From a virus (lineage: Duplodnaviria; Caudoviricetes), in IMG/VR virus record IMGVR_UViG_3300044577_000018, positions 1 through 54,517 of that record: a DNA stretch of 54,517 bases, one strand, 5' to 3'. The notes beneath the pieces are model-generated. The model had not been told where the DNA came from, did not search any database, and saw only the letters and a list, made by a program, of their open reading frames with translations. This document shows, piece by piece, positions 4,024 through 52,283 of the stretch; position 1 is the stretch's first letter; each line of letters opens with the position of its first letter. The translations under genes and the position numbers were made by a program.

Positions 4024-4746
4024 GTGTTGCACATGATAGTAGCCGTCATCCCCTTCCGAGCCAACTCGAAAGGCGTACCCGGTAAAAACACCCGCCTCGT
4101 GGCTGGTAAGCCCCTTTGGGTGTGGTCTCTAGAAGCTGCCGAGCGCGCCCGCTGCGTCGATCGCATTATCATTACAACGGACATTGATAGAGTCTCTCTT
4201 TTCAACCGGACGGGAATTGGTGCACTCGATCAACTCTACACCTCTGCCGGTATCTCGCTTCGGACTGAGTACATACAGCGTCCCGCCGAGCTGGCAACCG
4301 ATACCGCCACTCTAGACGAAGTCTTAATACACGCTGCCGACGCCTCTGTACCTCGTCTACCCGACGACGCAATAATAATGCTACTCCAGCCTACAGTTCC
4401 CGTCCGCCGGCCAGGTCTTCTAGACGACTGCTCTATTCTGTTTTCGCGTTTCCCCGCGGCTAAGTCCCTGCTAACCGCCAACCCGCTACACTACATCTGG
4501 CACGGCGACTCGGGGCGTCTTCTAAACCCGCCGCGCCGGAACCGCCAGGACATGAGCGGAGAGCAGCGCTACTTCCACGAGGACGGATCGGTATTCATGG
4601 TGCGCGCTGGCGACTTACGCGCTACCGGTAGCCGGGTTGTGGAGCCTGTTGTGCTGTTTGAGACTGAGCAGACAGTAGATATAGACACCGAAGCGGATAT
4701 GCGTTTAGCTGCTAGTCTACTCTCGTGCAACGATGGTACGAAGTAG
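4024..4746 (+). CDS. Acylneuraminate (nonulosonate) cytidylyltransferase, NeuA/PseF-like
   Basis: AVIPFRANSKGVPGKN, RPAELATD, LQPTVPVR, EDGSVF and VDIDTEAD are CMP-sugar synthetase motifs. Confidence 0.9.
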   Translation: MLHMIVAVIPFRANSKGVPGKNTRLVAGKPLWVWSLEAAERARCVDRIIITTDIDRVSLFNRTGIGALDQLYTSAGISLRTEYIQRPAELATDTATLDEVLIHAADASVPRLPDDAIIMLLQPTVPVRRPGLLDDCSILFSRFPAAKSLLTANPLHYIWHGDSGRLLNPPRRNRQDMSGEQRYFHEDGSVFMVRAGDLRATGSRVVEPVVLFETEQTVDIDTEADMRLAASLLSCNDGTK

Positions 4747-5055: not shown

Positions 5056-5961
5056 ATGACGAAGGCTAAGATGGCTAAAACGCCCGCTAACCCCTGCTTC
5101 AAAACCCTCTCAGCGACACTCAAGCAAGACGAGAACGGCGACGGCCGGGAGTTCACCTTTACGTTTTCGTCTGAGGAGCCCGATCGCGACAACGATATTA
5201 TCGTTCAAAGCGGCATCGATCTAACCCGCTTCCGCGAAAACCCTGTAGTGTTGTGGGCGCATAATCAAGGTTTCACAACTCCTCCGCCGCCCGTCGCAAG
5301 GGTTCTGCGTACGTGGCTTCGCGACAACAGGCTCATGGGTACGCTCGAGTTTCCGGTCGCAGGTATACACGCTCTAGCGGACACCTTGCGCGGCCTCGTG
5401 AGCACCGGCTTTCTCAACGCGGTTAGCATCGGCTTTCGGGTGCTGAAGTGGACCTTTGACGAGGATCGAGACGGCTTTGACTTCCTAGAAACTGAGCTAT
5501 TCGAGCTGTCTCTTGTGCCCGTGCCGGCTAACGCCGATGCGCTGATAGAAGCGACTCTAGCAGAAGGAACCTCGTTGAAGCCTCTGGCTGAGTGGGTAGA
5601 GCAGACGAAGAGTATGCTAGATAAGCTAGATGCGGCTGGCAATGCGGAGCTTGTAGCCGAGTCGCCTGATCTGGTTCCCGCGCTCGCGTCTCCGGTAGTC
5701 GAGCCCGTTCTCGATTTTGCGGCTAGCGTGAACACTAGAATGGATGAGGTGTTTGACTCGTTTGAGAAAAAGCTAGCTCAGTACCAACCGTCTCAACAAC
5801 CCAGCCCTATCCAAGCTTCTACTTCTGTATTACCAGTTACTACCACTTCCCGATCCATGACGGATCAAGAGCGCGACACTCTCAAAGGAGTTGTAAAGGC
5901 CGCGCTTCGCGATACGGCCGTTAGTGAGGTGCGTAACCACACAGGGCGGCTGGAAGACTAA
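5056..5961 (+). CDS. HK97-family prohead protease with C-terminal extension
   Basis: DRDNDII, NPVVLWAH, AVSIGF, ELSLVPVPANADA. Confidence 0.93.
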   Translation: MTKAKMAKTPANPCFKTLSATLKQDENGDGREFTFTFSSEEPDRDNDIIVQSGIDLTRFRENPVVLWAHNQGFTTPPPPVARVLRTWLRDNRLMGTLEFPVAGIHALADTLRGLVSTGFLNAVSIGFRVLKWTFDEDRDGFDFLETELFELSLVPVPANADALIEATLAEGTSLKPLAEWVEQTKSMLDKLDAAGNAELVAESPDLVPALASPVVEPVLDFAASVNTRMDEVFDSFEKKLAQYQPSQQPSPIQASTSVLPVTTTSRSMTDQERDTLKGVVKAALRDTAVSEVRNHTGRLED

Positions 5962-38863: not shown

Positions 38864-39442
38864 ATGACGCCTAAGCTAATAGCTTCCGGCCTATCCGAGC
38901 TCGTACCCATGCAGCGATCGGGCGACGAGACCCACCACGTCTCCTGGATCATTCGTGAGCTGTGCATCAAGCTTGGCCATTTTACTACGTCTTCTATGAC
39001 ACCCGAGCAGCAGACGCGAATGGAGCTCGGCTCGGTATTCGAGGACGCGGTTGTACATGCGCTAGCAGCTAGATACGCAAGCTCAGATGACAGCTTTGTG
39101 CAACCCGGTGAGTTCGAGCTAGACGGCTTGATAGGGACGCCTGATCTGCTAGATAACCAGGTAGGCGCGCTCACGGTTATCGAGATCAAGCTTACCTGGA
39201 TGTCCTCTCGCTGGGATCCCGAAGACGTCAAGTACTGGCGCTACTGGGTTCAGCTCATGGCTTACTGCAAGCTAGTGGGTACGCCACATGGCAGACTCCA
39301 CGTATGCCACATTAACGGCGACTACCGCGAGAACCGGCTACCCGACTACAAAGTTTATGAGGTAGAATTTAGTCGAGCCGAACTGGACGAGAATTGGCGC
39401 ATGCTGGTTACAAACGGGAAAGTCCTAAGGGGAAAACGGTGA
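38864..39442 (+). CDS. PD-(D/E)XK exonuclease (Cas4/lambda-exo-like)
   Basis: G..FE, GTPD, IEIK, QLMAY. Confidence 0.8.
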   Translation: MTPKLIASGLSELVPMQRSGDETHHVSWIIRELCIKLGHFTTSSMTPEQQTRMELGSVFEDAVVHALAARYASSDDSFVQPGEFELDGLIGTPDLLDNQVGALTVIEIKLTWMSSRWDPEDVKYWRYWVQLMAYCKLVGTPHGRLHVCHINGDYRENRLPDYKVYEVEFSRAELDENWRMLVTNGKVLRGKR

Positions 39443-39679
39443 GATACGAACCGCTCTCGTCTAAGCCGGTGATGGCTGAAGCAGCTGAGTACATCATAAC
39501 CGAAGGCGTAGCCGGCGTATGGCATTATCACCTCTCTACGCCTGACCTACCGTACCGCTCTCTATGCAACATGGTAGTCATGCGCACGTCTGCGCCTCTT
39601 GAGTACTGGAACAAGACACCGAAGGGCTACCATCTTCCTGAGACCTGGTGTAAGACGTGCGAAAGAAAACGGAGCAGCT

Positions 39680-40780
39680 ATGACAGCGACAATGACAGTA
39701 GCGAAGTCCCCGAAGCGCAAGCTAAGCCGCCGGGAAAAACAACGTAGATTAGACCTAAAGATCAAGCTTAGAAAAGCTCGCCGATCCAACCTGCCCGACT
39801 ACAAACAGCGCATTACCGACTACCTCACCCGCGATCCCAACGATCTAGAACCCCTGCGTTGCTGCAACTTTCAGCACTACGTCCGCTACTTTCTAGCTGC
39901 TCCCAATGTAGTAGAGAGGGCCTTTCGCCCCTGTAGAGCATGTGCCGACGACATGATCGAAACGGTGAAGATAGCGCGCGACGGCGACAAGGCCGTTACC
40001 GACAGCTGGGGCAACCGTTGCAGACTTGAGTTAGCGTCTACCAAAAACGAGTACAACGCCTTACGCAAGAAGATCACCCGCTCGGGCTGCAAACAGCATT
40101 TTATGATCAGGGCTGACGACGACCTCGTAGCCGTGCTCATACATCCGGACGCCGATATAGGCGTATTCTATGACGACGCCTTAGAGCTGCTCAATACCAT
40201 TTACGGGGAATGGACCGACCCGTCGATAGGAGGTACCTTGACGACTAGCGGACGGCACAGAAATAAGAAAAAGGGCAAGGGACGGGGCAGGGGACAGAAT
40301 GTCTCACCTGGGGGTAGGCAGAGTATACCCGCTAATGGGACACCCGAGACGTCTAACGAGCAGCCGGAGGTACAGCAAGTGACTAAAACGGGACAGCGCA
40401 CAGACGCCGTTCCCGCCTCTATGAATCCTGAAGACTTCGTAAGTGATGAAAACGAGAGGGTAGTCGCTTCTATGAATCCGGACGACATGACTGATGAGCC
40501 CGAAACCGAGCTGCTAACAGAGGAACAACGCTATACAGTCGCTATGTTGCCCAATGATACCCCTTATTCACAGCTACCCGAGGACGTCCGTAAAACCCTA
40601 CGTGATGGGCGTACTACCTCCTGGGGGCTTTCTCCTCCGGGTTTTATGGAATGTGCGGAAAAGAATGGGGCTCAGAATTTCCTCATACGCGGTCGACACA
40701 TTACGTGGATACCGCGTGAGAGCTATAAGAAGTTCAGGCATGAGGTAGAGAATTACAAGCCTGAGCTCGTTACCCCTTAG
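39680..40780 (+). CDS. Hypothetical protein with repeated ASMNP motif
   Basis: GGAG RBS before the ATG at 39680; long ORF. Confidence 0.5.
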   Translation: MTATMTVAKSPKRKLSRREKQRRLDLKIKLRKARRSNLPDYKQRITDYLTRDPNDLEPLRCCNFQHYVRYFLAAPNVVERAFRPCRACADDMIETVKIARDGDKAVTDSWGNRCRLELASTKNEYNALRKKITRSGCKQHFMIRADDDLVAVLIHPDADIGVFYDDALELLNTIYGEWTDPSIGGTLTTSGRHRNKKKGKGRGRGQNVSPGGRQSIPANGTPETSNEQPEVQQVTKTGQRTDAVPASMNPEDFVSDENERVVASMNPDDMTDEPETELLTEEQRYTVAMLPNDTPYSQLPEDVRKTLRDGRTTSWGLSPPGFMECAEKNGAQNFLIRGRHITWIPRESYKKFRHEVENYKPELVTP

Positions 40781-40802
40781 CGACTAAAGGAGCCCCCTCA
40801 CC

Positions 40803-41600
40803 GTGGCCAAGACGCCGGAGCACCTCAGACCCGACCCCTCTGTCATCTGGGAGGACGCCCCCACCGAGTTCGTCCGCCGCTTTACCCATATGGGTATTTA
40901 CGGTGATACCGGCACCGGGCGCACCTCTCTTGCTCTTACCGCACCTGGTCCTATCGGACTCGCCCACACGGCTGAGAAGATCGACGGCGTGGTACAGCAG
41001 CACTCAAAAGAGAAGGTGATCCGCGTCGTCAACTTCGGCGGCGTTTTCTCCGGCAGCCCCCAGCAGATAGCCGAGCAAGCAAACCCCAAATGGGAAGCGC
41101 TCAAGGTTGCTTGGAATGACGGCGTCGATAACTGGGCCAAGACTGTAGTCATGGATACCGACACCGAGGCGTGGGAGATATTACGCCTCGCACGCTTCGG
41201 CACTCTTGCACCTAAGGGGCGCATGGATAACCTCTACGGTCCCGTCAACGCAGAGTGGCGCGGCGTCATCAAACGGCATCGGCTAACCGAGCGCTGCAAC
41301 GTCATCACCATAGGGCAAGCCAAGGACGAGTACATAGAAAAGAAAACCGACAAAGGATCCATGGGCCAGCGTACGGGTCGCACTGTTCGAGCTGGGCAAA
41401 AGGAGATCCCCTACATGGCGGATGTCATCGTACGTACACATAAGACTTATGCCGATGACGGCGGAGTTGTGTTCTCGGCTGTGATCGAGAAGGGTTGGTT
41501 TAATGCTTTTATCGAAGGCATGGAAGTCTTCGGGGATGAGGTGCGGTTCAGTTACATTATGAGTTTGGTAACCGAGACAGACGAGGAAGAATGGTTGTGA
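40803..41600 (+). CDS. AAA_24/Sak4-like ATPase
   Basis: IYGDTGTGRT Walker A variant, TVVMDT Walker B, PYMADVIVR. Confidence 0.75.
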   Translation: MAKTPEHLRPDPSVIWEDAPTEFVRRFTHMGIYGDTGTGRTSLALTAPGPIGLAHTAEKIDGVVQQHSKEKVIRVVNFGGVFSGSPQQIAEQANPKWEALKVAWNDGVDNWAKTVVMDTDTEAWEILRLARFGTLAPKGRMDNLYGPVNAEWRGVIKRHRLTERCNVITIGQAKDEYIEKKTDKGSMGQRTGRTVRAGQKEIPYMADVIVRTHKTYADDGGVVFSAVIEKGWFNAFIEGMEVFGDEVRFSYIMSLVTETDEEEWL

Positions 41601-42376
41601 GGCGACATGGCGGGCGAGACCCGGTATGGTACGGCGCGGTCGGGTGCGGTCTGGTTAGGTCAGGCAGACGGGGCACGGAGAGACGGGGCGGGGCAAGACA
41701 CGGCCAGGCGTGGAATGGCTCGGTGGAGGTGAGGTCAGGTGAGGCAGGCGGGGCCGGGCGGGGCCGGGTATGGCCCAGTCAGGCGCGATGCGGCATGGTA
41801 AGACAAGGCAGGCGCGGTGGTGGCAGGGCTCGGTACGGTCAGGTCGGGCTGGATAAGGTTCGGTGAGGCAGGCATGGCATGGTCCGGAAAGGCTAGGTAC
41901 GGCAGGCGGGGCAGGTGTGGTCTGGCCGGGCTGGGCAGCATGAGGCACGGTTCGGTGTGGCATGGCTCGGTCGGATTCGGTACGGTTGGGTACGGCTGGT
42001 GAGGCTCGGCACGGCCCGGCGAGGTTAGGCGCGGCTCGGTGAGGTCGGGTCTGGTGGGGTTGGGTACGGTTCGGCGCGGCCTGGTCGGGTCAGGTCCGGC
42101 TGGGCAGGGCAGGCGAGGTGTGGTGACGTCAGGCAAGGCATGGTTGGGTGACGCCAGACAAGGTACGACGAGGCAGACAGAGCACGGCACGATTGGGTGT
42201 GGTGAGCCAAGGTGTGGTGGGGCAAGGCAGGCAGGTCGAGGTCCGGTTAGGTCGGGCGCGATCCGGCGTGGTAGAGCAAGGCAGGCAAGGCAGGCGCGAT
42301 ATGGCGCGGTCTGGTACGACCCGGCGTGGCTCGGTAAGGTTCGGTCTGGTCTGATAGGGCATGGCAGGCAAGGCAA
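41601..42376 (+). repeat. GGY-NN pentamer array 1 (candidate guide-RNA array)
   Basis: 5-nt periodicity; 22 consecutive perfect GGYNN units at 41998-42107; phase reset by GGCA 4-mers. Confidence 0.9.
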
Positions 42377-42502
42377 AGGAGGAAGAAAGGATGAGCAGAA
42401 AACGAATAAGGACAGCCCGTAAGGTTGGAAAGGTACGAGGAGATCAAAAGGGATCCTAATGGTGGGTTCTCTTTGAAGTACAACGAAAAGAAGGAGCAAA
42501 AA

Positions 42503-43387
42503 ATGGCAGTAGCAAAGAAGAAACCAAACGCGCAAGAAGAGATCCCAGTTCTAGAGATCACACAAGGTTGTATCGACTTCCATATAGTCGGTACCACGCC
42601 TCTGATCTGTAACTCTATGTCCGAGAAGGCTGCGCACGAGTTGCTTTTGCCCAAGGGCCGGAAGACGGACGCCGAGAAACGATCCACTTTAAAGCATAAT
42701 CCGCCTGAGGAGTACCGCGACAGCATCTACCGGGCTACCGAGAGTGATGCACCGACACGCATTACGATCTTAGCCACGTCGTTCAAGAGTGCTTTGCGCG
42801 ATGCGGCGATCGACATGCCGGATGTCAACAAGTCACAGATCGGACGCTTGACATACGTGGAGGGGGACTATCGCAACGGGAGCTATGTGCACATTTACGG
42901 TGTCCCTGAATTGCACATGTGTTTCGTACGTAGCGCCAATATGGCCCGTACTCCGGACGTCCGTACCCGTGCGATCATACCTGAATGGGCCTGCATCCTT
43001 CGCATCAAGTACACTATGCCTCTGCTACGCGAGAGATCGGTTAGTAATTTGTTGGCCGCTTCGGGACTCATTCGGGGTGTAGGAGACTGGCGCCCAGAGA
43101 AAGGTTCAGGCAGCTACGGACAATTCAAGCTTGTGCCCAAGAGCGACAGTCAATTCAAGCGGATCGTGAAAAACGGCGGACGCGAAGATCAGGATTCGGC
43201 TCTGCTGAACCCTTCTTGCTACGACGGCGAGACGGCTAAGCTACTTACGTGGTTCCATAGTGAGTTGTCGAATCGCGGCTTCGATGAAAAGGGTCGTCCT
43301 ATCGGTACCCTTGCCAAGTCGGATAGTAATGCCTTCGTAGACAACGGTGAAGATGAGACGCACGACGAGGCTCGTCTTCAGGGCTAA
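42503..43387 (+). CDS. RAMP/Cas7-like protein (candidate RNA-guided effector)
   Basis: AAGGAG RBS; HIVGTTPLI, ILATSFKSALRDAA, and C-terminal Gly-rich loop GVGDWRPEKGSGSYGQF. Confidence 0.65.
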   Translation: MAVAKKKPNAQEEIPVLEITQGCIDFHIVGTTPLICNSMSEKAAHELLLPKGRKTDAEKRSTLKHNPPEEYRDSIYRATESDAPTRITILATSFKSALRDAAIDMPDVNKSQIGRLTYVEGDYRNGSYVHIYGVPELHMCFVRSANMARTPDVRTRAIIPEWACILRIKYTMPLLRERSVSNLLAASGLIRGVGDWRPEKGSGSYGQFKLVPKSDSQFKRIVKNGGREDQDSALLNPSCYDGETAKLLTWFHSELSNRGFDEKGRPIGTLAKSDSNAFVDNGEDETHDEARLQG

Positions 43388-43395
43388 CCCATTTT

Positions 43396-43446
43396 GATTC
43401 AGAGCTGCCGCTTGAAAGTTAAAAGCGGCAGCTCTGAATCTTTTAT
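43396..43446 (+). terminator. 18-bp perfect hairpin, terminator-like
   Basis: GATTCAGAGCTGCCGCTT / AAGCGGCAGCTCTGAATC with 9-nt loop, followed by TTTTAT. Confidence 0.7.
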
Positions 43447-43460
43447 CAGGAGGTTTTCAA

Positions 43461-43970
43461 ATGAACATGCCCAACACCAAAAGACGCGCGTTAGTAGAAA
43501 ACGCCATACGTGCACTAGAAGATGATCAAGGTTGCATAACGCCTGAGAATGTTATCGACGTCGCAAGGGATCCCAGAAGCGCTTTGCACTCAGAGTTCGA
43601 ATGGGATGACGCCAAGGCCGGACACGCCCACCGTCTGGACCAAGCTCGGGTACTCATTCGCAGTGTCAAGGTGGTCGTCACAATTGAAAGACACACGATC
43701 GCCGCTCCCTACTATGTGCGTGACCCTAATGTGCAGCCGGCCGAACAGGGCTATGTCGCGCTCGAACGCATACAAAAGGATCCACAAGGTGCGTTAGCTA
43801 TGCTGAATTACGAATTTACGCGGGCTAACGCACACTTGACGAGAGCGGAAGAGATAGCGGAGGCGGTTGGTATGAAGGCTGATTTGGCAGCTGCTATACG
43901 TAACGCTCGAGCTGCTAGCAAGAAGATCGAGAAGACGGTTAAGCGTTTGAAGGACAAGGGCGAAGAGTGA
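43461..43970 (+). CDS. Conserved-looking phage protein, partner of the RAMP-like gene
   Basis: AGGAGG RBS; ITPENVIDVARDPRSALHSEFEWDD..A...RLDQAR.LI. Confidence 0.7.
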   Translation: MNMPNTKRRALVENAIRALEDDQGCITPENVIDVARDPRSALHSEFEWDDAKAGHAHRLDQARVLIRSVKVVVTIERHTIAAPYYVRDPNVQPAEQGYVALERIQKDPQGALAMLNYEFTRANAHLTRAEEIAEAVGMKADLAAAIRNARAASKKIEKTVKRLKDKGEE

Positions 43971-43971
43971 C

Positions 43972-44531
43972 GGCAGGGTTAGATGCGGCCCGGTTCGGTC
44001 GGGCGCGGCTTGGCGGGTATGGCGCGGCAGGGCGAGGTGAGGTTCAGTCTGGTGAGGCTGGGCGAGGCGGGGTGAGGTATGGTCTGGTAAGGCAGGTGCG
44101 GCCGGGTTAGGTCTGGTCGGGCGAGATCAGGCGAGATGTGGCTTGGTCTGGTGAGGCAGGCAAAGGCAAGGCGCGGTACGGCTTGGTGGGGTCGAGTGAG
44201 GCTTGACTCGGCAGTCGGGGTCCGGCCCGGTTTGGCGCGGCAAGGTTAGGTAAGGCAGGTACGGCCCGACGGGGCTTGGTACGATAGGGTTGGGCGAGGT
44301 TCGGTAAGGCGTGGCAGGTGCGGTAGGTTCGGCTGGGTATAGTCTGGTTGGTCAGGTTCGGTAGGGTATGGTGCGGTCGGGTCCGGCGTGGCAGGCGAGA
44401 CACGGACTGGCCAGGTGAGGCGAGGCTGGGTTGGGCCGGGCGTGGTTTGGTACGGCAGACGAGGTTAGGTCAGGTAGGGCACGGTATTGTATGACTCGGT
44501 TCGGTTCGGTGAGGCAGGCGGGACTCGGCTT
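43972..44531 (+). repeat. GGY-NN pentamer array 2 (candidate guide-RNA array)
   Basis: Same grammar as array 1; GGCA at 44091, 44155, 44210, 44254, 44313, 44390, 44454 and 44513. Confidence 0.9.
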
Positions 44532-44561
44532 AGATCGCGGGAGTAGGGGCAGAATGGTAAA

Positions 44562-45305
44562 GTGCTGATAGATGACCGTGCCGGCTCCCGTGATCTGATA
44601 GGCTACTCGCCCCTTACCTCAACTTCCGAACTCACTCGCCTGGACTCTGGCGATGCCCTTATAACCGGCAACGGTCCTAACGATTCGGTTCTACTCATAG
44701 GCGTCGAGCTGAAAACCATATCCGATCTACTCTCCTCCACCGCAACCGGACGCCTACAAGCAACCCAGCTCCCGGCTATGCTCAAGCACTACGATATCTC
44801 CTACCTTCTGTACTACGGTCATTACCGATCGGGGCGCAAGGGCGAGCTACAGACTTACCGCTACACCAAACGACGCAAGCGTTACGAGTGGCGATCCATA
44901 CCCATTAGCCGATCGCGTTTGATACCGTACTCGTATCTCGACAGCTTCCTACTGACTCTGAGCGCTGTAGGCGTACGCTTGAAGCACGTAGAGTCCATAA
45001 CCCATGCGGCTCTATGGCTTGGCATTCTCGAGAAGTGGTGGTCGAAGCCGTGGGACAAGCACAGGGCGCTACATACGTTTGACAACTCGAGTACGATAAG
45101 CCTTTTGCCGGGCTTAGATCCGGACGTGCTACAGCGCGCGCGGGTGGCCCAACAGTTGCCGGGAGTAGGCTTCGAGCGCGCGGTAGCTGCGGCAAGACAC
45201 TTCTCAAGCATACGAGACATGATGAATGCTACAGCCGAGCAGTGGGAAGAGATAGAGGGGATCGGTAAGGTGGTAGCGAAGGCGGTTGAAAGAGCTATTA
45301 GATGA
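44562..45305 (+). CDS. ERCC4/XPF-like nuclease with C-terminal HhH
   Basis: LIDDR, SGD, GVELK..SDL..S...GRL..Q, LPGVG, IEGIG. Confidence 0.8.
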   Translation: MLIDDRAGSRDLIGYSPLTSTSELTRLDSGDALITGNGPNDSVLLIGVELKTISDLLSSTATGRLQATQLPAMLKHYDISYLLYYGHYRSGRKGELQTYRYTKRRKRYEWRSIPISRSRLIPYSYLDSFLLTLSAVGVRLKHVESITHAALWLGILEKWWSKPWDKHRALHTFDNSSTISLLPGLDPDVLQRARVAQQLPGVGFERAVAAARHFSSIRDMMNATAEQWEEIEGIGKVVAKAVERAIR

Positions 45306-45624
45306 CTGCAACGATTCGCTGCTCCCGTTGCCCTAGGGAAGCTACGCACGAGTGCTATATATGCTCTTGTCTACAAAATAATGAGCCTGATTGAAAGGGG
45401 CTATTCGATGATCTCTGAACGCAAGGACAAGCGCTACCGCAGAGTTAGAAGACGGACGCAGATACCCGCTCACAGAAAGTACGCTGCCGAAGTTCACCGG
45501 GTCGCTACGGCTCATCTCGAAGTGTTGTCATGTTGCGCCACGATGACCGACGCTATTAGACACATCACCAGATCAGGCCGAGTACCCACTGTATGGAAAA
45601 AACCGTGACGTTGGGCGCAAGGAA

Positions 45625-45891
45625 GTGAAGCTCAAGGGCTGGGGTAAGGGCGTCTTGAATCTACGCACTGGACCCATTAGACCTGACACTCTTGAGCTCT
45701 GGATTCTTATCGACGGCCGCCCTAATATGTGGCACAAGCCCCGTGTCTCTACCCGATCGCACGGATCTCATGTTCTAACTCTCTGCGGCAGAAAAATGCG
45801 TAATACCGGCGTCTCCGCTGTCGACCATCTTAGAGACGAGCCTTGGCTGCAACCGCAACCCCGGTGCAAACGCTGCCGTATAGCCACTTGA
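45625..45891 (+). CDS. Hypothetical protein
   Basis: H...TLCG...CKRC possible zinc site. Confidence 0.4.
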   Translation: MKLKGWGKGVLNLRTGPIRPDTLELWILIDGRPNMWHKPRVSTRSHGSHVLTLCGRKMRNTGVSAVDHLRDEPWLQPQPRCKRCRIAT

Positions 45892-45917
45892 CAGCTAGTC
45901 ACGTCGTGTGTTAGCTT
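45888..45917 (+). promoter_or_regulatory. Putative promoter for the polymerase gene
   Basis: TTGACA-N18-TAGCTT; shares CACTTGACAGCTAGTCACGT with 34083-34102. Confidence 0.6.
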
Positions 45918-45927
45918 TCTAATTGCC

Positions 45928-48612
45928 GTGAAAGTGACAGCCGACACCCGCACACGCGATCGTGACGCGCACCTTGAACACGCTATCGAAGTACATGGGC
46001 GCGGCACTTCCCCGAACCGGGTCATGATCGTAGGCGAGCGCCCCGGACGCGAGGAAGTCGAGCAAGGCCGCCCCTTTGTAGGCCCATCCGGCAAAGCCCA
46101 AGAGCACTACCTACGCCTACACGGCTACTCATCTCATCAAGCGTACGTTACTAATCTTTGCAAGTCCTACGATGAGCACAACCTAGATCCCAACCCTGAA
46201 GACGTTGAGTACTGGTCGGCTACCTTGCAGCGGGAGGTGGACGATTGCAAGCCGGATATCATACTCACGATCGGCGCATACGCTACCCGCTGGTTTCTAG
46301 GTAAGCACGTCTACATGGCTGACGTACACGGAATACCGCATAAGTCGCCGAGAGCATCCAAGGCGATCGTTATGCCGTGCTTCCACCCAGCCGGCGGCTT
46401 CTACGACTCGAGCGCTAGGACCTTGATAGCGTGGGACTATGCGCAAGCGGTAGCGGCTATTAAAGGGCGGGTGGCGGAGCCGGCGGTTGATGAGTACGTC
46501 GGACGTGAGAAATACTTGGATGTCACGGGCGAGCAGTTGGCCGCCATAACTCTAGAGCGCTTTGGATCAAGCGACGTGCGGGCTCTCGGTCCGGTACCCT
46601 CGAAGTATCGTATCCCGTACTCCCTAGCTGTAGATACCGAGGGAACGCCAAGCAACCCGTGGTCCATTCAGGTGTCCGTCTACGCAGGTACCGGCTACGT
46701 CCTTCGCTGTACGCAACCCGACTTTGCAACCGGTATCCAAGCTCTACAACGTGTAGCCGACTCGGGCACCACCATTGCGATCCATAACGGCATGTACGAC
46801 CTAGAAATGTGTCGCGTCATGGGACTCGATCTATATGACGCGCACCTATGGGATTCCATGTACGCGGCTTACGTCTTACGCGTCGAGCCCCAAGGTCTAA
46901 AACCGCTAGCCTACCGTTGGTGTGGTATGGAGATGAAGTCTTATCAGGACGTAGTAGGTGACGTAGGACTAGAAAAGCAGATCGACTACCTGGTAGCTGT
47001 GTCGGATCTAGATACCCCGGACCCGGAGCCCCGCATCATCCAGGATAACGACGGCACGGCTAGACTCTACAAACCCCAACCGCTGCGCCGTAGGGCTGAA
47101 TCAATACTCGTCGACTACTACAGCGAGAAGCTCGATAAGGACGGCAACCGTACAGACCCTTACAAGCGGTGGACGAAGCAAACGCCGCGCGACCTCCGCG
47201 AGCCTGCGGAAGACATACTGGGTCCCATGCCCGAAGGTACACTAGGCGACTTACCTCTTGAGGACGCCGTACGCTACGCAGCCCGCGACCCCGACGCTAC
47301 CTTACGTCTCATGCGCGCGTTAGTACCTGCACTAGAAACGCATGATCTTACCGATCTCCATCGCGACGGCATGGACGTGCTACCCGTTTTCGAGGAAATG
47401 CAATCGAATGGCATACCCGCGCGTAAGACGCACTTCGAGGATCTATCCGAGCACGTACGCACGGAAATGGACAAGCGTCAAGTACACATAGCGGTTAAGT
47501 ACTACGAAAACCGCCCCTTCAACCCTGGGAGCCCTAAAGACGTCGCAACCTTATTACGTCGTCGCGGTCTCGTTCCCGAGAAGCATACTCCCACGGGTAA
47601 GATCTCAACCGGTAAAGAGTCAATAGAGCACTTCCGTTTCACCGACGACGCCATTAAAAACGTGATCGAATGGCGCGAATTGCAGAAGGTGGATACCGGC
47701 TTTTGTCGTCCTTTGATAGAGACCTTTCCCCTTGGCGTCGATCATCACCCGGTACGCACCAAGATCCTAACGACTCGTACCACGGCGCGTCGGATAGCTG
47801 CCAAGGGTATCAATTTTTTAGCTATCCCTATCCGACACGAACTAGGTAAGCGGCTGCGTAACGGCTTTGAAGCGGACGAGGGCTGTGTTTTCGGTGCATG
47901 GGATCTGAGTCAGATCGAGATGCGCTACACTGCTCACGTCTCGCGCGATCCGCTACTCGTTAAGCTGTTCCGCGACGGCCGCGACATTCACGCCGAAACC
48001 GCTGCCTCTGTATTCGGTATCCCTCTAGCCGACGTCGATGAGCTCGAGCACCGCTACCCATCCAAGCGTGCGGGGTTCGGCATCCTTTACGGCATTCAAG
48101 GGTACGGGTTGCTAGATCAGCTACGCATGTTTGGTTGCAAGGGGTGGACTGTCGACAAGTGCGACGAGCTCATAGCTGAATGGCTCAAGCTCTATAAGGG
48201 CGTTCCTGCGTACAGTGAGCTGTGTGTCAACGAAGCGCGCGAGAGTGGTGTGGTTCGAGATTGCTGGGGTATGCCTCGGTACGTACCTGAGATATGGTCG
48301 GACGACTCGTATACACGGGCAGAGGCGGAGCGCTTCATTATGTCGCACAAGGTCCAAGGCGGGGCACAAGGCATGATCCAAAAGTCCATGGCTTGGCTCA
48401 AACCCTACGTACGGTCTCTTAGGGCTGCGCATGTGCGCGTTGAGTGGTTACTACAGATACACGACGAGCTGATGTTTATGTTTGCCGAGCACTTGTGGGA
48501 AGTAATGGATCCGCTTGTTACTGAAGCGCTAACCAAGCACTCGCTTGAGCTGATCGTACCTGTAGAAGCTAAAGGCGGGATGGCTAAAAGGTGGGGCGGG
48601 TTGAAAGGATGA
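45928..48612 (+). CDS. polA: Family A DNA polymerase with N-terminal UDG-like and 3'-5' exonuclease domains
   Basis: UDG: VGERPG..E...GRPFVGPSG, HPA; exonuclease: DTE, HNGMYD, YAARD; polymerase motifs DLSQIEMR, KRAGFGILYG, QIHDEL. Confidence 0.92.
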   Translation: MKVTADTRTRDRDAHLEHAIEVHGRGTSPNRVMIVGERPGREEVEQGRPFVGPSGKAQEHYLRLHGYSSHQAYVTNLCKSYDEHNLDPNPEDVEYWSATLQREVDDCKPDIILTIGAYATRWFLGKHVYMADVHGIPHKSPRASKAIVMPCFHPAGGFYDSSARTLIAWDYAQAVAAIKGRVAEPAVDEYVGREKYLDVTGEQLAAITLERFGSSDVRALGPVPSKYRIPYSLAVDTEGTPSNPWSIQVSVYAGTGYVLRCTQPDFATGIQALQRVADSGTTIAIHNGMYDLEMCRVMGLDLYDAHLWDSMYAAYVLRVEPQGLKPLAYRWCGMEMKSYQDVVGDVGLEKQIDYLVAVSDLDTPDPEPRIIQDNDGTARLYKPQPLRRRAESILVDYYSEKLDKDGNRTDPYKRWTKQTPRDLREPAEDILGPMPEGTLGDLPLEDAVRYAARDPDATLRLMRALVPALETHDLTDLHRDGMDVLPVFEEMQSNGIPARKTHFEDLSEHVRTEMDKRQVHIAVKYYENRPFNPGSPKDVATLLRRRGLVPEKHTPTGKISTGKESIEHFRFTDDAIKNVIEWRELQKVDTGFCRPLIETFPLGVDHHPVRTKILTTRTTARRIAAKGINFLAIPIRHELGKRLRNGFEADEGCVFGAWDLSQIEMRYTAHVSRDPLLVKLFRDGRDIHAETAASVFGIPLADVDELEHRYPSKRAGFGILYGIQGYGLLDQLRMFGCKGWTVDKCDELIAEWLKLYKGVPAYSELCVNEARESGVVRDCWGMPRYVPEIWSDDSYTRAEAERFIMSHKVQGGAQGMIQKSMAWLKPYVRSLRAAHVRVEWLLQIHDELMFMFAEHLWEVMDPLVTEALTKHSLELIVPVEAKGGMAKRWGGLKG

Positions 48613-49659: not shown

Positions 49660-49842
49660 GTGAGGTGCCCTGAGTGTGGAAACACTGTCGAATACCCGAC
49701 TGTCGATATAGGCATAGGAGAGGTGCAGTGTGGACCTGCATCCTGCCCCGAATGCAATTGGGCTGAAGAGGATCCTAAGGATAAGAGTGAGGCTGGTTTT
49801 GGTGAGATCCCTTGGGACGAAGGTGAGGACGAGTTTACATGA
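49660..49842 (+). CDS. Small zinc-ribbon protein
   Basis: CPECG...VDIGIG..QCGP..CPEC. Confidence 0.55.
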   Translation: MRCPECGNTVEYPTVDIGIGEVQCGPASCPECNWAEEDPKDKSEAGFGEIPWDEGEDEFT

Positions 49843-51224
49843 CCCCTTACGAGCTCCTAACCAAGCTGTTCCACATACCCCGATCTCTAACCGGTCCCGG
49901 CGTGCGTGAGGCGTTATTCGTCATCAACACCGAGCTCGACGACCTGCTAACTATTCAGGAGGTCCCATCCGGCACCCGCGCTTATGACTGGGTAGTACCC
50001 CCTGAGTGGCGATTTAAGCTAGCGCGCATGAAACGTAAGGATACGGGTGACGTGGTATTCGATACCTCGAAAGGCGATTCTCCGCTGCACGTCGTTGGCT
50101 ACAGTGCATGTACTGATACGGCGCTCTGGTTAGAAGACAACGATCCGCACATACACGTAGGTCCTCGCGAAATGCCTAACGCGATCCCTTACGTCACGAC
50201 CTACTACGCGGATCCGCCTATGTGGGGCATTTGTCTGTCGCACAACCAGTACGAAGCCCTCGATCCTAAAGCCGAATACGCGATAGAGATCGTCTCCGAA
50301 TTCCTAGGTCCCGGCGAATGGCCCGACAGCCTACGCGCTAACGGATCCCTCACTTACGCCGAAGCGGTTATACCCGGCGACACGACGGACGAGATAGTAC
50401 TCTCGAGCTACATCTGTCATACAGGCGGCATGGCTAATAACGAGTGCTCAGGTCCGGCAGTGCTGACGGAGATCGTCAAGTGGTGGCGTAGTCAGCCGCG
50501 CCGATACACCTTGCGAATATTACTCGCACCCGAGACGATAGGCCCGCTCGTTTGGATGAGTCAACAAAAGGGGCCGGAGTCGTGGACAGGGCTTGACTGG
50601 CTCAAGGCGCACGTTAAAGCTGGCTTTACTCTTACGTGCATGGGAGGTGGTGGTACCGGCTACGTCCAGCAAGGCCGACACCCAACGTACGCGAGTCGAA
50701 TAGCTAAGGCGGCACTCGCTATGGGAGACGCGTCTAAGCGCGTGCTGAAGTGGCGATCTCGTATGTCGGACGAGCGCCAATGGTGTGCGCCTGGTATCGA
50801 CTTACCCTGGGCAACGATCATGAAAACGCACCCCAAGGATCCGGAATACGAATACAGATACCATACGTCGGCGGACGATCTTACCTACGTGACCGAAAAG
50901 CAGATAACCGAATCTGTAATAGCTGTAAAGGGTGTACTCGAGGCGGTAGAGCTCGATCGCGTATGGCGTACACGGGTCCTAGGAGAGCCGCAGCTAGGTA
51001 AGCGCGGTTTGTACGATACGATTTCGAAAACCGGGTCCTCTGCACCGTCGCGTTCTTTACTGGACGTGTTGTCGTATTGCGACGGCTGCAGCATGTTAGA
51101 GATAGCGGAGACACTCAAGCGTTCGTTTTCGAGTGTGCAGGCTGATATAGATCGGCTGCGTGAATTCAAACTTATACCGGTATCACGCATTTTTCTACCG
51201 CAGAAGGGTGTGGTGAAGTCATGA
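49839..51224 (+). CDS. DUF4910-family (M28 peptidase-like plus wHTH) protein
   Basis: PRSLTGPGVRE, WVVPPEW, LHVVGYS, IPYVTTYY, YICH..MANNECSG, PETIG, SDERQ, YHTSADDL, GEPQLGKRGLY. Confidence 0.88.
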   Translation: MTPYELLTKLFHIPRSLTGPGVREALFVINTELDDLLTIQEVPSGTRAYDWVVPPEWRFKLARMKRKDTGDVVFDTSKGDSPLHVVGYSACTDTALWLEDNDPHIHVGPREMPNAIPYVTTYYADPPMWGICLSHNQYEALDPKAEYAIEIVSEFLGPGEWPDSLRANGSLTYAEAVIPGDTTDEIVLSSYICHTGGMANNECSGPAVLTEIVKWWRSQPRRYTLRILLAPETIGPLVWMSQQKGPESWTGLDWLKAHVKAGFTLTCMGGGGTGYVQQGRHPTYASRIAKAALAMGDASKRVLKWRSRMSDERQWCAPGIDLPWATIMKTHPKDPEYEYRYHTSADDLTYVTEKQITESVIAVKGVLEAVELDRVWRTRVLGEPQLGKRGLYDTISKTGSSAPSRSLLDVLSYCDGCSMLEIAETLKRSFSSVQADIDRLREFKLIPVSRIFLPQKGVVKS

Positions 51225-51475
51225 GTAGAAATAGCGAAAATAGGATCGTACTAGATCTTGTGAAGCGGATAACTCTGCTAGAGAGTCGGATAGCTCGTCT
51301 AGAGTCGGAGATAAGGGGGGCGGAGTGGGTTCCTGTACGTCAGATGACTAGCGCTGGCGGGTGCCGTTGGGTTCCGGCTTCGGCTTATCCTCACTACCCG
51401 CGTTACGATCTCATGCTCGAATATTGGCATGTAGGATATGACAGTGATAGCCGAGACAAGAGCCGAGACGTCTAA
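51221..51475 (+). CDS. Hypothetical protein
   Basis: ATGA-coupled to the DUF4910 gene; short coiled coil. Confidence 0.35.
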   Translation: MSRNSENRIVLDLVKRITLLESRIARLESEIRGAEWVPVRQMTSAGGCRWVPASAYPHYPRYDLMLEYWHVGYDSDSRDKSRDV

Positions 51476-52283
51476 AGCGGACCTAGTATCCGACTTGCAC
51501 GCTATGGGTGTAAGCAACCGCCACGTGATGGTGCATTCGTCCTACAAGCTGCTAGCGCCTGTCGAGGACGGTCCTAAGGGTGTTGTGGACGCGTTTGTGA
51601 AAGCTGTAGACGCGGGTACCTTGCTGTTCCCGACTTACGACTTTACGAGCTGGACGGAACGCGGATATTGGAGCCGAGACGATACGCCGTCTCAAATGGG
51701 CGTCATATCCGAGACAGCGCGCACAGATCCCCGGTTTTGGCGCACAACTCATCCGGTACTGAGCTACGCGGTCTATCACGATGCGAAAGGCGGGCGTGGG
51801 GGTAGGCGGGTGTGGGGGTACGGGGATGACGTCGTTAACGCGCACGGTCTCGGCTCTGTATTCGATCGGCTAGTTCGCAACCGGGGGCTTTTGATATCCA
51901 TAGGCGCTGAAAAGCAAACCGGGTTCCGTGCTAACGACACAGGCTTCACCATTTCAAACCACGCGGCTCTGTTAGCTGGTGCCCACTGGCGCAAGATAAA
52001 AGTGTTTGAAGGTCTTTATCAAGGCAAGGGCAGTATGCTACGCAGGTACGCGCTATCCGTTAACGCAGATCCGACCAAGTACGTAACGCAAGTAACACCC
52101 GCACACGTACAGGCCGAGAAAGAGGGCGTGATACAGCGTATGACGCTAGGTCGTACCGAGTGCTGGGTAGCGGATGCAGCCGAGTTCGTAGAGTGGGCTA
52201 TCCAAGCGCATAGGGATCGGCCTGAGTTGTGGTTTACGAGCTCGATGATGAGAGTCCCGGACTGGGATTGGAGCGACGTTTGA
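51438..52283 (+). CDS. AAC(3)/YokD-family N-acyltransferase
   Basis: VMVHSS, GTLLFPTYDF, TPSQMGVISE, RTTHP..S. Confidence 0.85.
   Translation: MTVIAETRAETSKADLVSDLHAMGVSNRHVMVHSSYKLLAPVEDGPKGVVDAFVKAVDAGTLLFPTYDFTSWTERGYWSRDDTPSQMGVISETARTDPRFWRTTHPVLSYAVYHDAKGGRGGRRVWGYGDDVVNAHGLGSVFDRLVRNRGLLISIGAEKQTGFRANDTGFTISNHAALLAGAHWRKIKVFEGLYQGKGSMLRRYALSVNADPTKYVTQVTPAHVQAEKEGVIQRMTLGRTECWVADAAEFVEWAIQAHRDRPELWFTSSMMRVPDWDWSDV

Follow-up and report, generated by a model that had tools for sequence, protein, structure and literature searches.

The five-base repeat at positions 41601–42376 of the window, the whole 54,517-nt stretch of viral DNA that we analyzed, very probably belongs to a VIPR system carried by the phage, as one of its two vrRNA arrays, of the kind termed a "staggered array." The repeat is real and was read correctly in the first-pass annotation, which had been made from the DNA letters and their translations; published descriptions of its kind date back to April 2026, and the kind is thus known, so that the result is of value mainly because the VIPR grammar was recovered unaided from the DNA letters. 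The window spans an entire virus record whose estimated completeness is 84%; all long open reading frames (ORFs) lie on the + strand, and it encodes a terminase, portal, capsid, and prohead protease. Both arrays sit in its replication/recombination module: a UvrD-like helicase, a DEAD helicase, a PD-(D/E)XK nuclease, and a Sak4-like AAA_24 ATPase precede array 1, and the order continues with a phrog_4652 protein, a phrog_15946 protein, array 2, an ERCC4-HhH nuclease, and a UDG-PolA fusion. The features on which the argument turns are as follows.

41601..42376, + strand: putative vrRNA array 1, 141 GGYNN units plus 14 four-nt units that break the register (12 are GGCA)
42503..43387, + strand: vipr, predicted RAMP-fold Vipr protein of 294 aa (phrog_4652, E 2.3e-13)
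43461..43970, + strand: candidate vap, 169 aa (phrog_15946)
43971..44530, + strand: putative vrRNA array 2, 103 GGYNN units plus 11 four-nt units that break the register (7 are GGCA)

VIPR (Viral Interference Programmable Repeat) is described, in the available text of two 2026 preprints, as a CRISPR-related gene silencer (10.64898/2026.04.26.720920, 10.64898/2026.04.26.720927). According to the available text of the first, phages encode a minimal RAMP protein (Vipr), usually with one accessory gene (vap), and vrRNAs of 9–16 YNNGG repeats, whose NN pairs specify the DNA target with one base skipped per repeat; the targets are rival satellites and prophages, often within coding sequence and with the skip on the wobble base, and the guides have no self-targets (10.64898/2026.04.26.720920). 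For the system of Escherichia phage SUSP1, the second reports one Vipr protomer per repeat, with the GGY bases flipped out and held by a G-loop and a thumb: G1 is contacted by H17 and D177, G2 by R138 and W178, and Y3 by R179, the pocket of which excludes purines (10.64898/2026.04.26.720927). Left exposed, the NN pairs recognize double-stranded DNA, two bases at a time with one skipped, and the genes that the complex silences belong to rival phages or satellites (10.64898/2026.04.26.720920, 10.64898/2026.04.26.720927); plaquing of SUSP1 on a satellite lysogen is reported to need both vipr and vap1 (10.64898/2026.10.15.759431, available text).

To define the grammar of array 1, we measured periodicity and parsed the repeat into units. 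Self-identity at a lag of 5 nt reaches 0.41–0.61 in the array stretches, compared with 0.25–0.29 at other lags, and across the 54.5-kb window this signal is restricted to sub-windows starting at 41501–42301 and 43951–44451. A dynamic-programming parse resolves 41601–42376 into 158 units, comprising 141 of five nt, 14 of four nt, 2 of six nt (at 41722 and 41816), and 1 of three nt. Across the five-nt units, GGY hardly varies and NN is almost random: the entropies by unit position are 0.30, 0.67, 1.13, 1.95, and 1.97 bits, that is, three conserved positions followed by two free ones, and the third position is a pyrimidine in 138 of the 141 units. The 22 consecutive perfect GGYNN units that the first-pass annotation placed at 41998–42107 are recovered by both the parse and pattern matching, and of the 28 units that are not GGY, which it described as mostly GAY or AGY, 20 fit that description (17 GAY and 3 AGY). 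Its account of the phase breaks was right for all eleven GGCA units that it listed and for GGCT at 41994, but it missed a further GGCA at 41910, GGCG at 41609, and the two six-nt units. The gaps between successive four-nt breaks measure 80, 64, 60, 34, 9, 84, 114, 64, 54, 54, 9, and 74 nt, so that 7 of the 12 fall within the 54–80 nt given there for many segments. The Sak4-like gene lies upstream of array 1, which begins one base past its stop codon.

These properties bear directly on whether the region could be a satellite that arose neutrally by slippage or could code for a repetitive protein, a reading that we consider extremely improbable. In its favor, ORFs of up to 266 aa cross the array on both strands; however, the three array frames are equally open because of composition, and a five-nt period interrupted by four-nt slips cannot hold a reading frame across the array. 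Translation into a conserved protein had been named at the outset as an outcome that would speak against a guide array, and none of the five array-crossing ORFs contains a Pfam family. Conservation is confined to three of the five positions, with NN at 1.95–1.97 bits per base, and TRF yields short, weak sub-repeats only and no repeat-spacer array. The earlier argument against a slippage satellite, which would homogenize the whole unit, matches the published VIPR mechanism. A search of 41000–45000 against Rfam (E up to 1) returned no family and therefore no hammerhead ribozymes.

Array 2 lies beyond the coordinates covered by the first-pass annotation, has the same grammar and entropies as array 1, and begins one base past the stop codon of the candidate vap gene. 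All 64 matches to the pattern (GGYNN)4GGY lie within the two arrays on the + strand, and 100 dinucleotide shuffles gave none; an eight-unit GGYNN pattern gives 26 forward matches, none in reverse, and none with the backwards control. Together, the arrays (776 and 560 nt) contain ~19 guide segments. The recurrence of GG every 5 nt, the skewed composition of both lag-5 stretches (G 35–51% vs. C 16–24% on the + strand, which is the sense strand), and the location of the arrays among replication and recombination genes would also suit a G-rich structural element without guide function, either tandem two-tetrad G-quadruplexes or an R-loop-prone origin. Such an element leaves unexplained the pyrimidine at position 3, the near-random NN, the GGCA phasing, and the linkage to a RAMP gene, and in relatives the module sits in other contexts, from which five other window proteins that we tested are absent; we regard it as very unlikely. 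A G-quadruplex/R-loop origin, a TRAP-like periodic RNA-binding site, and Rho avoidance were early ideas that were dropped upon the link to Vipr.

That link comes from the gene that follows array 1. The listed ORF begins with TTG at 42425, and its probable start is the ATG at 42503, which stands behind AAGGAG. On the basis of sequence profiles and a structural model, we assign the 42503–43387 product to the Vipr family, with a predicted RAMP/Cas7-like fold; Vipr proteins are minimal RAMPs that have an RRM core, a glycine-rich loop, and a thumb. A 27-sequence profile, built from the window protein and 26 others (omitting the partial L043 and the weak L079), matched one solved structure, 36pp SUSP1 Vipr, at E 5e-46. 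Because this profile includes sequences close to SUSP1, we also ran an 11-sequence profile of the window protein's own clade, whose positions 19–200, nearly its full length, matched the PDB entry 36pp ("SUSP1 Vipr protein") with E 6.3e-10. As a single sequence, the window protein matches SUSP1 Vipr weakly (E 0.74), and the link between the two therefore rests on the profiles; its last ~85 aa reach beyond the family core. When its AF2 model (pLDDT 78) was searched with Foldseek against a structure library older than the Vipr entry 36pp, the top matches were Csm3, Cmr4, Cas7-11, and type VII Cas7, at E about 1e-5.

The residues that would hold GGY are largely retained. The 27-sequence alignment shows a C-terminal motif, G-x-G-D-x-R-P...F-G-R-F, and in a single-sequence alignment the G-loop of the window protein, GVGDWRP, falls on the same loop of SUSP1. 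Residues R156, D195, W196, and R197 align with SUSP1 R138, D177, W178, and R179, while H17 is replaced by Asn37, Asn being the clade consensus; thus, four of the five SUSP1 residues holding G1, G2, and Y3 are kept. The claim that the NN positions carry information is in keeping with the VIPR mechanism, with the adjoining Vipr gene and its GGY-binding residues, and with the lack of self-targets described below.

Taken feature by feature, the window resembles the SUSP1 type II VIPR system in being phage-borne, in pairing a Vipr RAMP with one small accessory gene (a candidate in the window), and in carrying GGY/NN repeat RNA genes on both sides; the D-W-R of the G-loop and the thumb Arg are kept, and neither targets itself. 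In the window, both arrays directly flank the gene pair and lie on the vipr strand. It differs from SUSP1 in having ~19 segments in two long arrays instead of four ~100-nt vrRNAs, in its distant protein with Asn at the H17 equivalent, and in its candidate accessory gene, a member of phrog_15946; unlike the tested type II systems, its segments have no 3' tail or pseudoknot, and their apparent boundaries are four-nt GGCA slips. The RAMP fold is that of the Class 1 CRISPR backbone (Cas7/Csm3/Cmr4), and in both Class 1 CRISPR and VIPR the protomers polymerize along the guide with periodic base flipping, although the period in VIPR is 5 nt with three bases sequestered, as opposed to 6 nt with one base flipped. 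Recognition in VIPR is also gapped. CRISPR-Cas membership is judged by a repeat-spacer array and a cas operon (Cas1/Cas2, large subunit or nuclease); TRF found no such array, and a scan of 35 window ORFs found no cas family other than the RAMP fold.

To place the arrays in their transcriptional setting, we scanned 39000–46000 for promoters and terminators. One promoter-like site (3.4 expected) and seven terminator-like sites (5.3 expected) were found, none of them at the arrays; because neither signal exceeds chance there, we infer that the arrays are co-transcribed with the + strand genes around them. A 22-codon Arg/Lys-rich ORF (42392–42460) follows array 1 and lies before vipr, and AAAGGAGG stands shortly ahead of its ATG. 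By homology with SUSP1, Vipr would coat the array RNA with one protomer per unit. Since neighboring protomers share each GGY, a four-nt unit would break this lattice: GGCA would shift the five-nt register by one base, such that one filament ends and the next begins, and the junction thus exposed would be the site at which the transcript is cut. The resulting guides in the window would be mostly 10–16 units long, and each, by analogy with the published system, would read a rival element at ~3 bp per unit and would block its transcription, assisted by the partner protein.

The linkage of such arrays to this protein family emerged from a survey of viral contigs for ten perfect GGYNN units, made on DNA without protein information. 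The survey returned at least 137 stretches, and the matches listed include 153 distinct arrays of about 50–1600 nt; the NN-pair entropy is mostly 2.6–3.96 of 4 bits (first 70 of the 153 arrays). The four-nt units among the matches listed are dominated by GGCA (187 occurrences), with CGCA next (20). From 68 de-duplicated loci with 2-kb flanks, we took 96 co-oriented ORFs beside arrays. Pfam identified mainly recombination and replication proteins, and 18 of the 96 were set aside as named; of the remaining 78, PHROGs placed 28, in 28 different loci, in phrog_4652 and 4 in phrog_15946. Among the matches listed, the directly adjacent co-oriented ORF is a phrog_4652 member in 28 of the 68 loci. In some arrays, such as those of L058 and L044, the four-nt unit that recurs is CGCA and not GGCA (6 and 10 copies), and therefore the break keeps -GCA and not the first G.

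In loci other than the window, the spacing of GGCA peaks at 8–13 units. In array 1, the numbers of units between successive GGCA are 15, 12, 11, 6, 1, 39 (16 + 22 when divided by GGCT), 12, 10, 10, 1, and 14, and in array 2 they are 23, 8, 11, 15, 12, and 11. In the other loci listed that have at least three GGCA units, 100 of 146 GGCA-bounded segments contain 8–13 units, with a mode of 10, compared with 20% expected from a geometric null of the same mean (binomial p 5e-36), a comparison made on loci found by ten perfect units and hence favoring long uninterrupted stretches. The bases beside the break are biased as well: the first variable base past GGCA is a purine at 19/19 window boundaries, vs. 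54–62% overall, and in 84% of 180 pooled contexts.

Punctuation also follows Vipr phylogeny. In a tree of 31 rows, from which L150 was omitted as it nearly duplicates L149, the 10 punctuated loci (one of them the window) all belong to a single 11-row clade with support 95/98, and none of the 20 rows outside it is punctuated; the label requires 2 changes, compared with 8.6 in shuffles, and none of 500 shuffles was as low. The eleventh row of the clade, L148, has 23 recognizable units and no GGCA, and its position inside the clade leads to the rejection of strict monophyly for the 10 punctuated rows (p-AU 0.015). GGCA or CGCA is kept across the clade at 23–62% protein identity to the window. Other Vipr clades hold other architectures: L067, L024, L070, and L010 form one clade with very long, almost unpunctuated arrays, and L009 and L064, from further clades, have tail-type arrays.

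The legend of fig. S18 in 10.64898/2026.04.26.720920 describes tail-less "staggered arrays" in which successive vrRNAs are "1 nt overlapping." The window arrays are likewise tail-less, and a four-nt unit in a five-nt lattice yields such a 1-nt overlap, so that identifying the four-nt unit with this overlap fits the legend. The proposal in the first-pass annotation that GGCA marks boundaries accordingly gains support from comparison: from the 8–13-unit peak, from the restriction to one clade, and from this legend. An alternative, which we hold to be rather improbable, is that these are VIPR vrRNA arrays in which GGCA is no guide boundary, the RNA being cut elsewhere or coated as one long filament that tolerates slips or hinges. 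Several observations favor it: staggered arrays are not among the architectures confirmed by sRNA-seq in the available text of 10.64898/2026.04.26.720920, the window segments range from 1 to 39 units between GGCA, and other Vipr clades manage long unpunctuated arrays, as in L067, whose ~1.6-kb array has 313 five-nt units and a single four-nt unit. It does not readily account for the sharpness of the spacing peak among the loci listed, the retention of GGCA/CGCA across so divergent a clade, or the biased bases beside GGCA, and the 1-nt overlap of the preprint legend fits a boundary.

If the segments are guides, they should spare their own genome and match others. We scanned the 19 guides against the rest of the window; the scores lie within the shuffled range or one base above it, the single excess being 20/28 against a shuffled maximum of 19. 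All are below 80% except for a six-unit guide at 10/12, which is inside its shuffled range. No guide matches its own phage genome. For external targets, we applied the 1-nt skip rule with exact IUPAC patterns and the published threshold of at least 80% NN identity. Among these exact-pattern scans, no natural target reached 80% NN over a full segment; two segments of array 1 gave the best candidates.

41914..41993, + strand: guide segment of 16 units, whose antisense NN code corresponds to the prohead-protease motif R-D-I-T-E-V-S-L-H-R of other phages (candidate target)
42293..42362, + strand: guide segment of 14 units, with units 3–12 matched in a gp6-like head-tail connector gene, at its 3' end (candidate target)

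An eight-unit seed of the 41914–41993 guide matched 12 viral loci, 10 of which are Peptidase_S78 (Caudovirus prohead protease) genes. The best full-length match, 25/32 NN (78%), occurs in three contigs, with units 3–12 perfect, and the site encodes the motif R-D-I-T-E-V-S-L, read in antisense with the skip on the wobble base. The window's own protease (5056–5961) is matched best at the homologous site, at 16/32. The ten-unit core of the 42293 guide has one perfect viral match, in a 24-kb contig (L151), where NN falls on codon positions 1 and 2; the four flanking units score 1/8, giving 21/28 overall (75%). A second eight-unit seed matched 10 loci, with a best full-guide match of 22/30, and the ten-unit cores of the guides at 42112, 42176, and 42230 had no viral matches. 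Four exact-pattern scans of genome and metagenome collections gave no matches. No second guide converges on L151, G002, or G005, and on G003 one other guide (44394–44453) is barely above shuffles (17/24 vs. a maximum of 16). The candidate target contigs have 63–70% G+C, vs. about 54% for the window.

From the 10–12 matches found per 16-base pattern, a 20-base pattern would be expected to give ~0.04 chance matches, so that two perfect, wobble-aligned, ten-unit matches to head-assembly genes are suggestive, not proof. These sites, which we present as candidates and do not claim as targets, point to head-morphogenesis genes of other phages as the aim of at least some guides. They further suggest that the guides spell conserved protein motifs, and escape of a rival by synonymous change would therefore be hard. 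That the matching is perfect over only 10 units inside segments of 14 and 16 units counts in favor of the alternative in which GGCA is no guide boundary.

Returning to GGCA as a guide boundary, we tentatively propose a fuller model, to which we give limited credence as a whole: in this clade, a one-base slip would be the sole signal delimiting guides, the filament would measure a long polycistronic transcript into tail-less guides of ~10 protomers with no ribozyme involved, and these would spell head-assembly motifs of rivals (the E-V-S-L box of the prohead protease, the head-tail connector) while sparing the phage's own homologue. If true, reading the GGCA slip in this way would define a mode of guide biogenesis that has yet to be demonstrated in VIPR or CRISPR. 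The main texts of 10.64898/2026.04.26.720920, 10.64898/2026.04.26.720927, and 10.64898/2026.10.15.759431 contain no occurrence of GGCA. Going beyond what we found in print, the present data indicate that tail-less arrays are punctuated by a specific four-nt unit (GGCA/CGCA) with a modal spacing of 10 units and that, among the loci listed, this punctuation marks one Vipr clade.

The candidate vap gene comes after vipr in all five relatives examined, L146–L150 (44–60% Vipr identity), and in Gordonia phage ODay. Five other window proteins that we tested, among them the Sak4-like, ERCC4, PolA, and a 393-aa protein, were found in none of the L146–L150 flanks; this pattern, seen by sequence comparison, fits a mobile two-gene module made up of vipr and candidate vap. 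The AF2 model of candidate vap (pLDDT 86.7) gave no Foldseek match at E ≤ 0.001, and the weak rows are mostly winged-helix proteins.

Both genes extend to cultured phages. By tblastn, Vipr homologues occur in 32 phage records (5 Gordonia and 27 Mycobacterium), and partner homologues in 33, namely those 32 and one cyanophage. In ODay, genes 19 and 20 (L155, 10343–11608), each recorded as a "hypothetical protein," represent the homologues of vipr and its partner, and the 213-nt gap between them is filled by a GGCA-punctuated GGYNN array; the 27 Mycobacterium smegmatis phage records carry both homologues as judged by protein homology. The clade thus reaches cultured Gordonia phages and, by that homology, M. 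smegmatis phages, which makes staggered-array processing directly testable.

The window also carries genes of note outside the VIPR module. The UDG-PolA fusion (45928–48612) joins an N-terminal uracil-DNA-glycosylase-like domain to a family A DNA polymerase (PF03167 + PF01612 + PF00476), and a cytidylyltransferase-like ORF (4024–4746; PF02348, E 6e-10) lies between the terminase and the prohead protease. Unusual phage cargo occupies 49839–52283, where a DUF4910/DUF2172/HTH_47 protein (E 8e-65) is followed by a gene for an aminoglycoside 3-N-acetyltransferase family protein (PF02522, E 2e-18).
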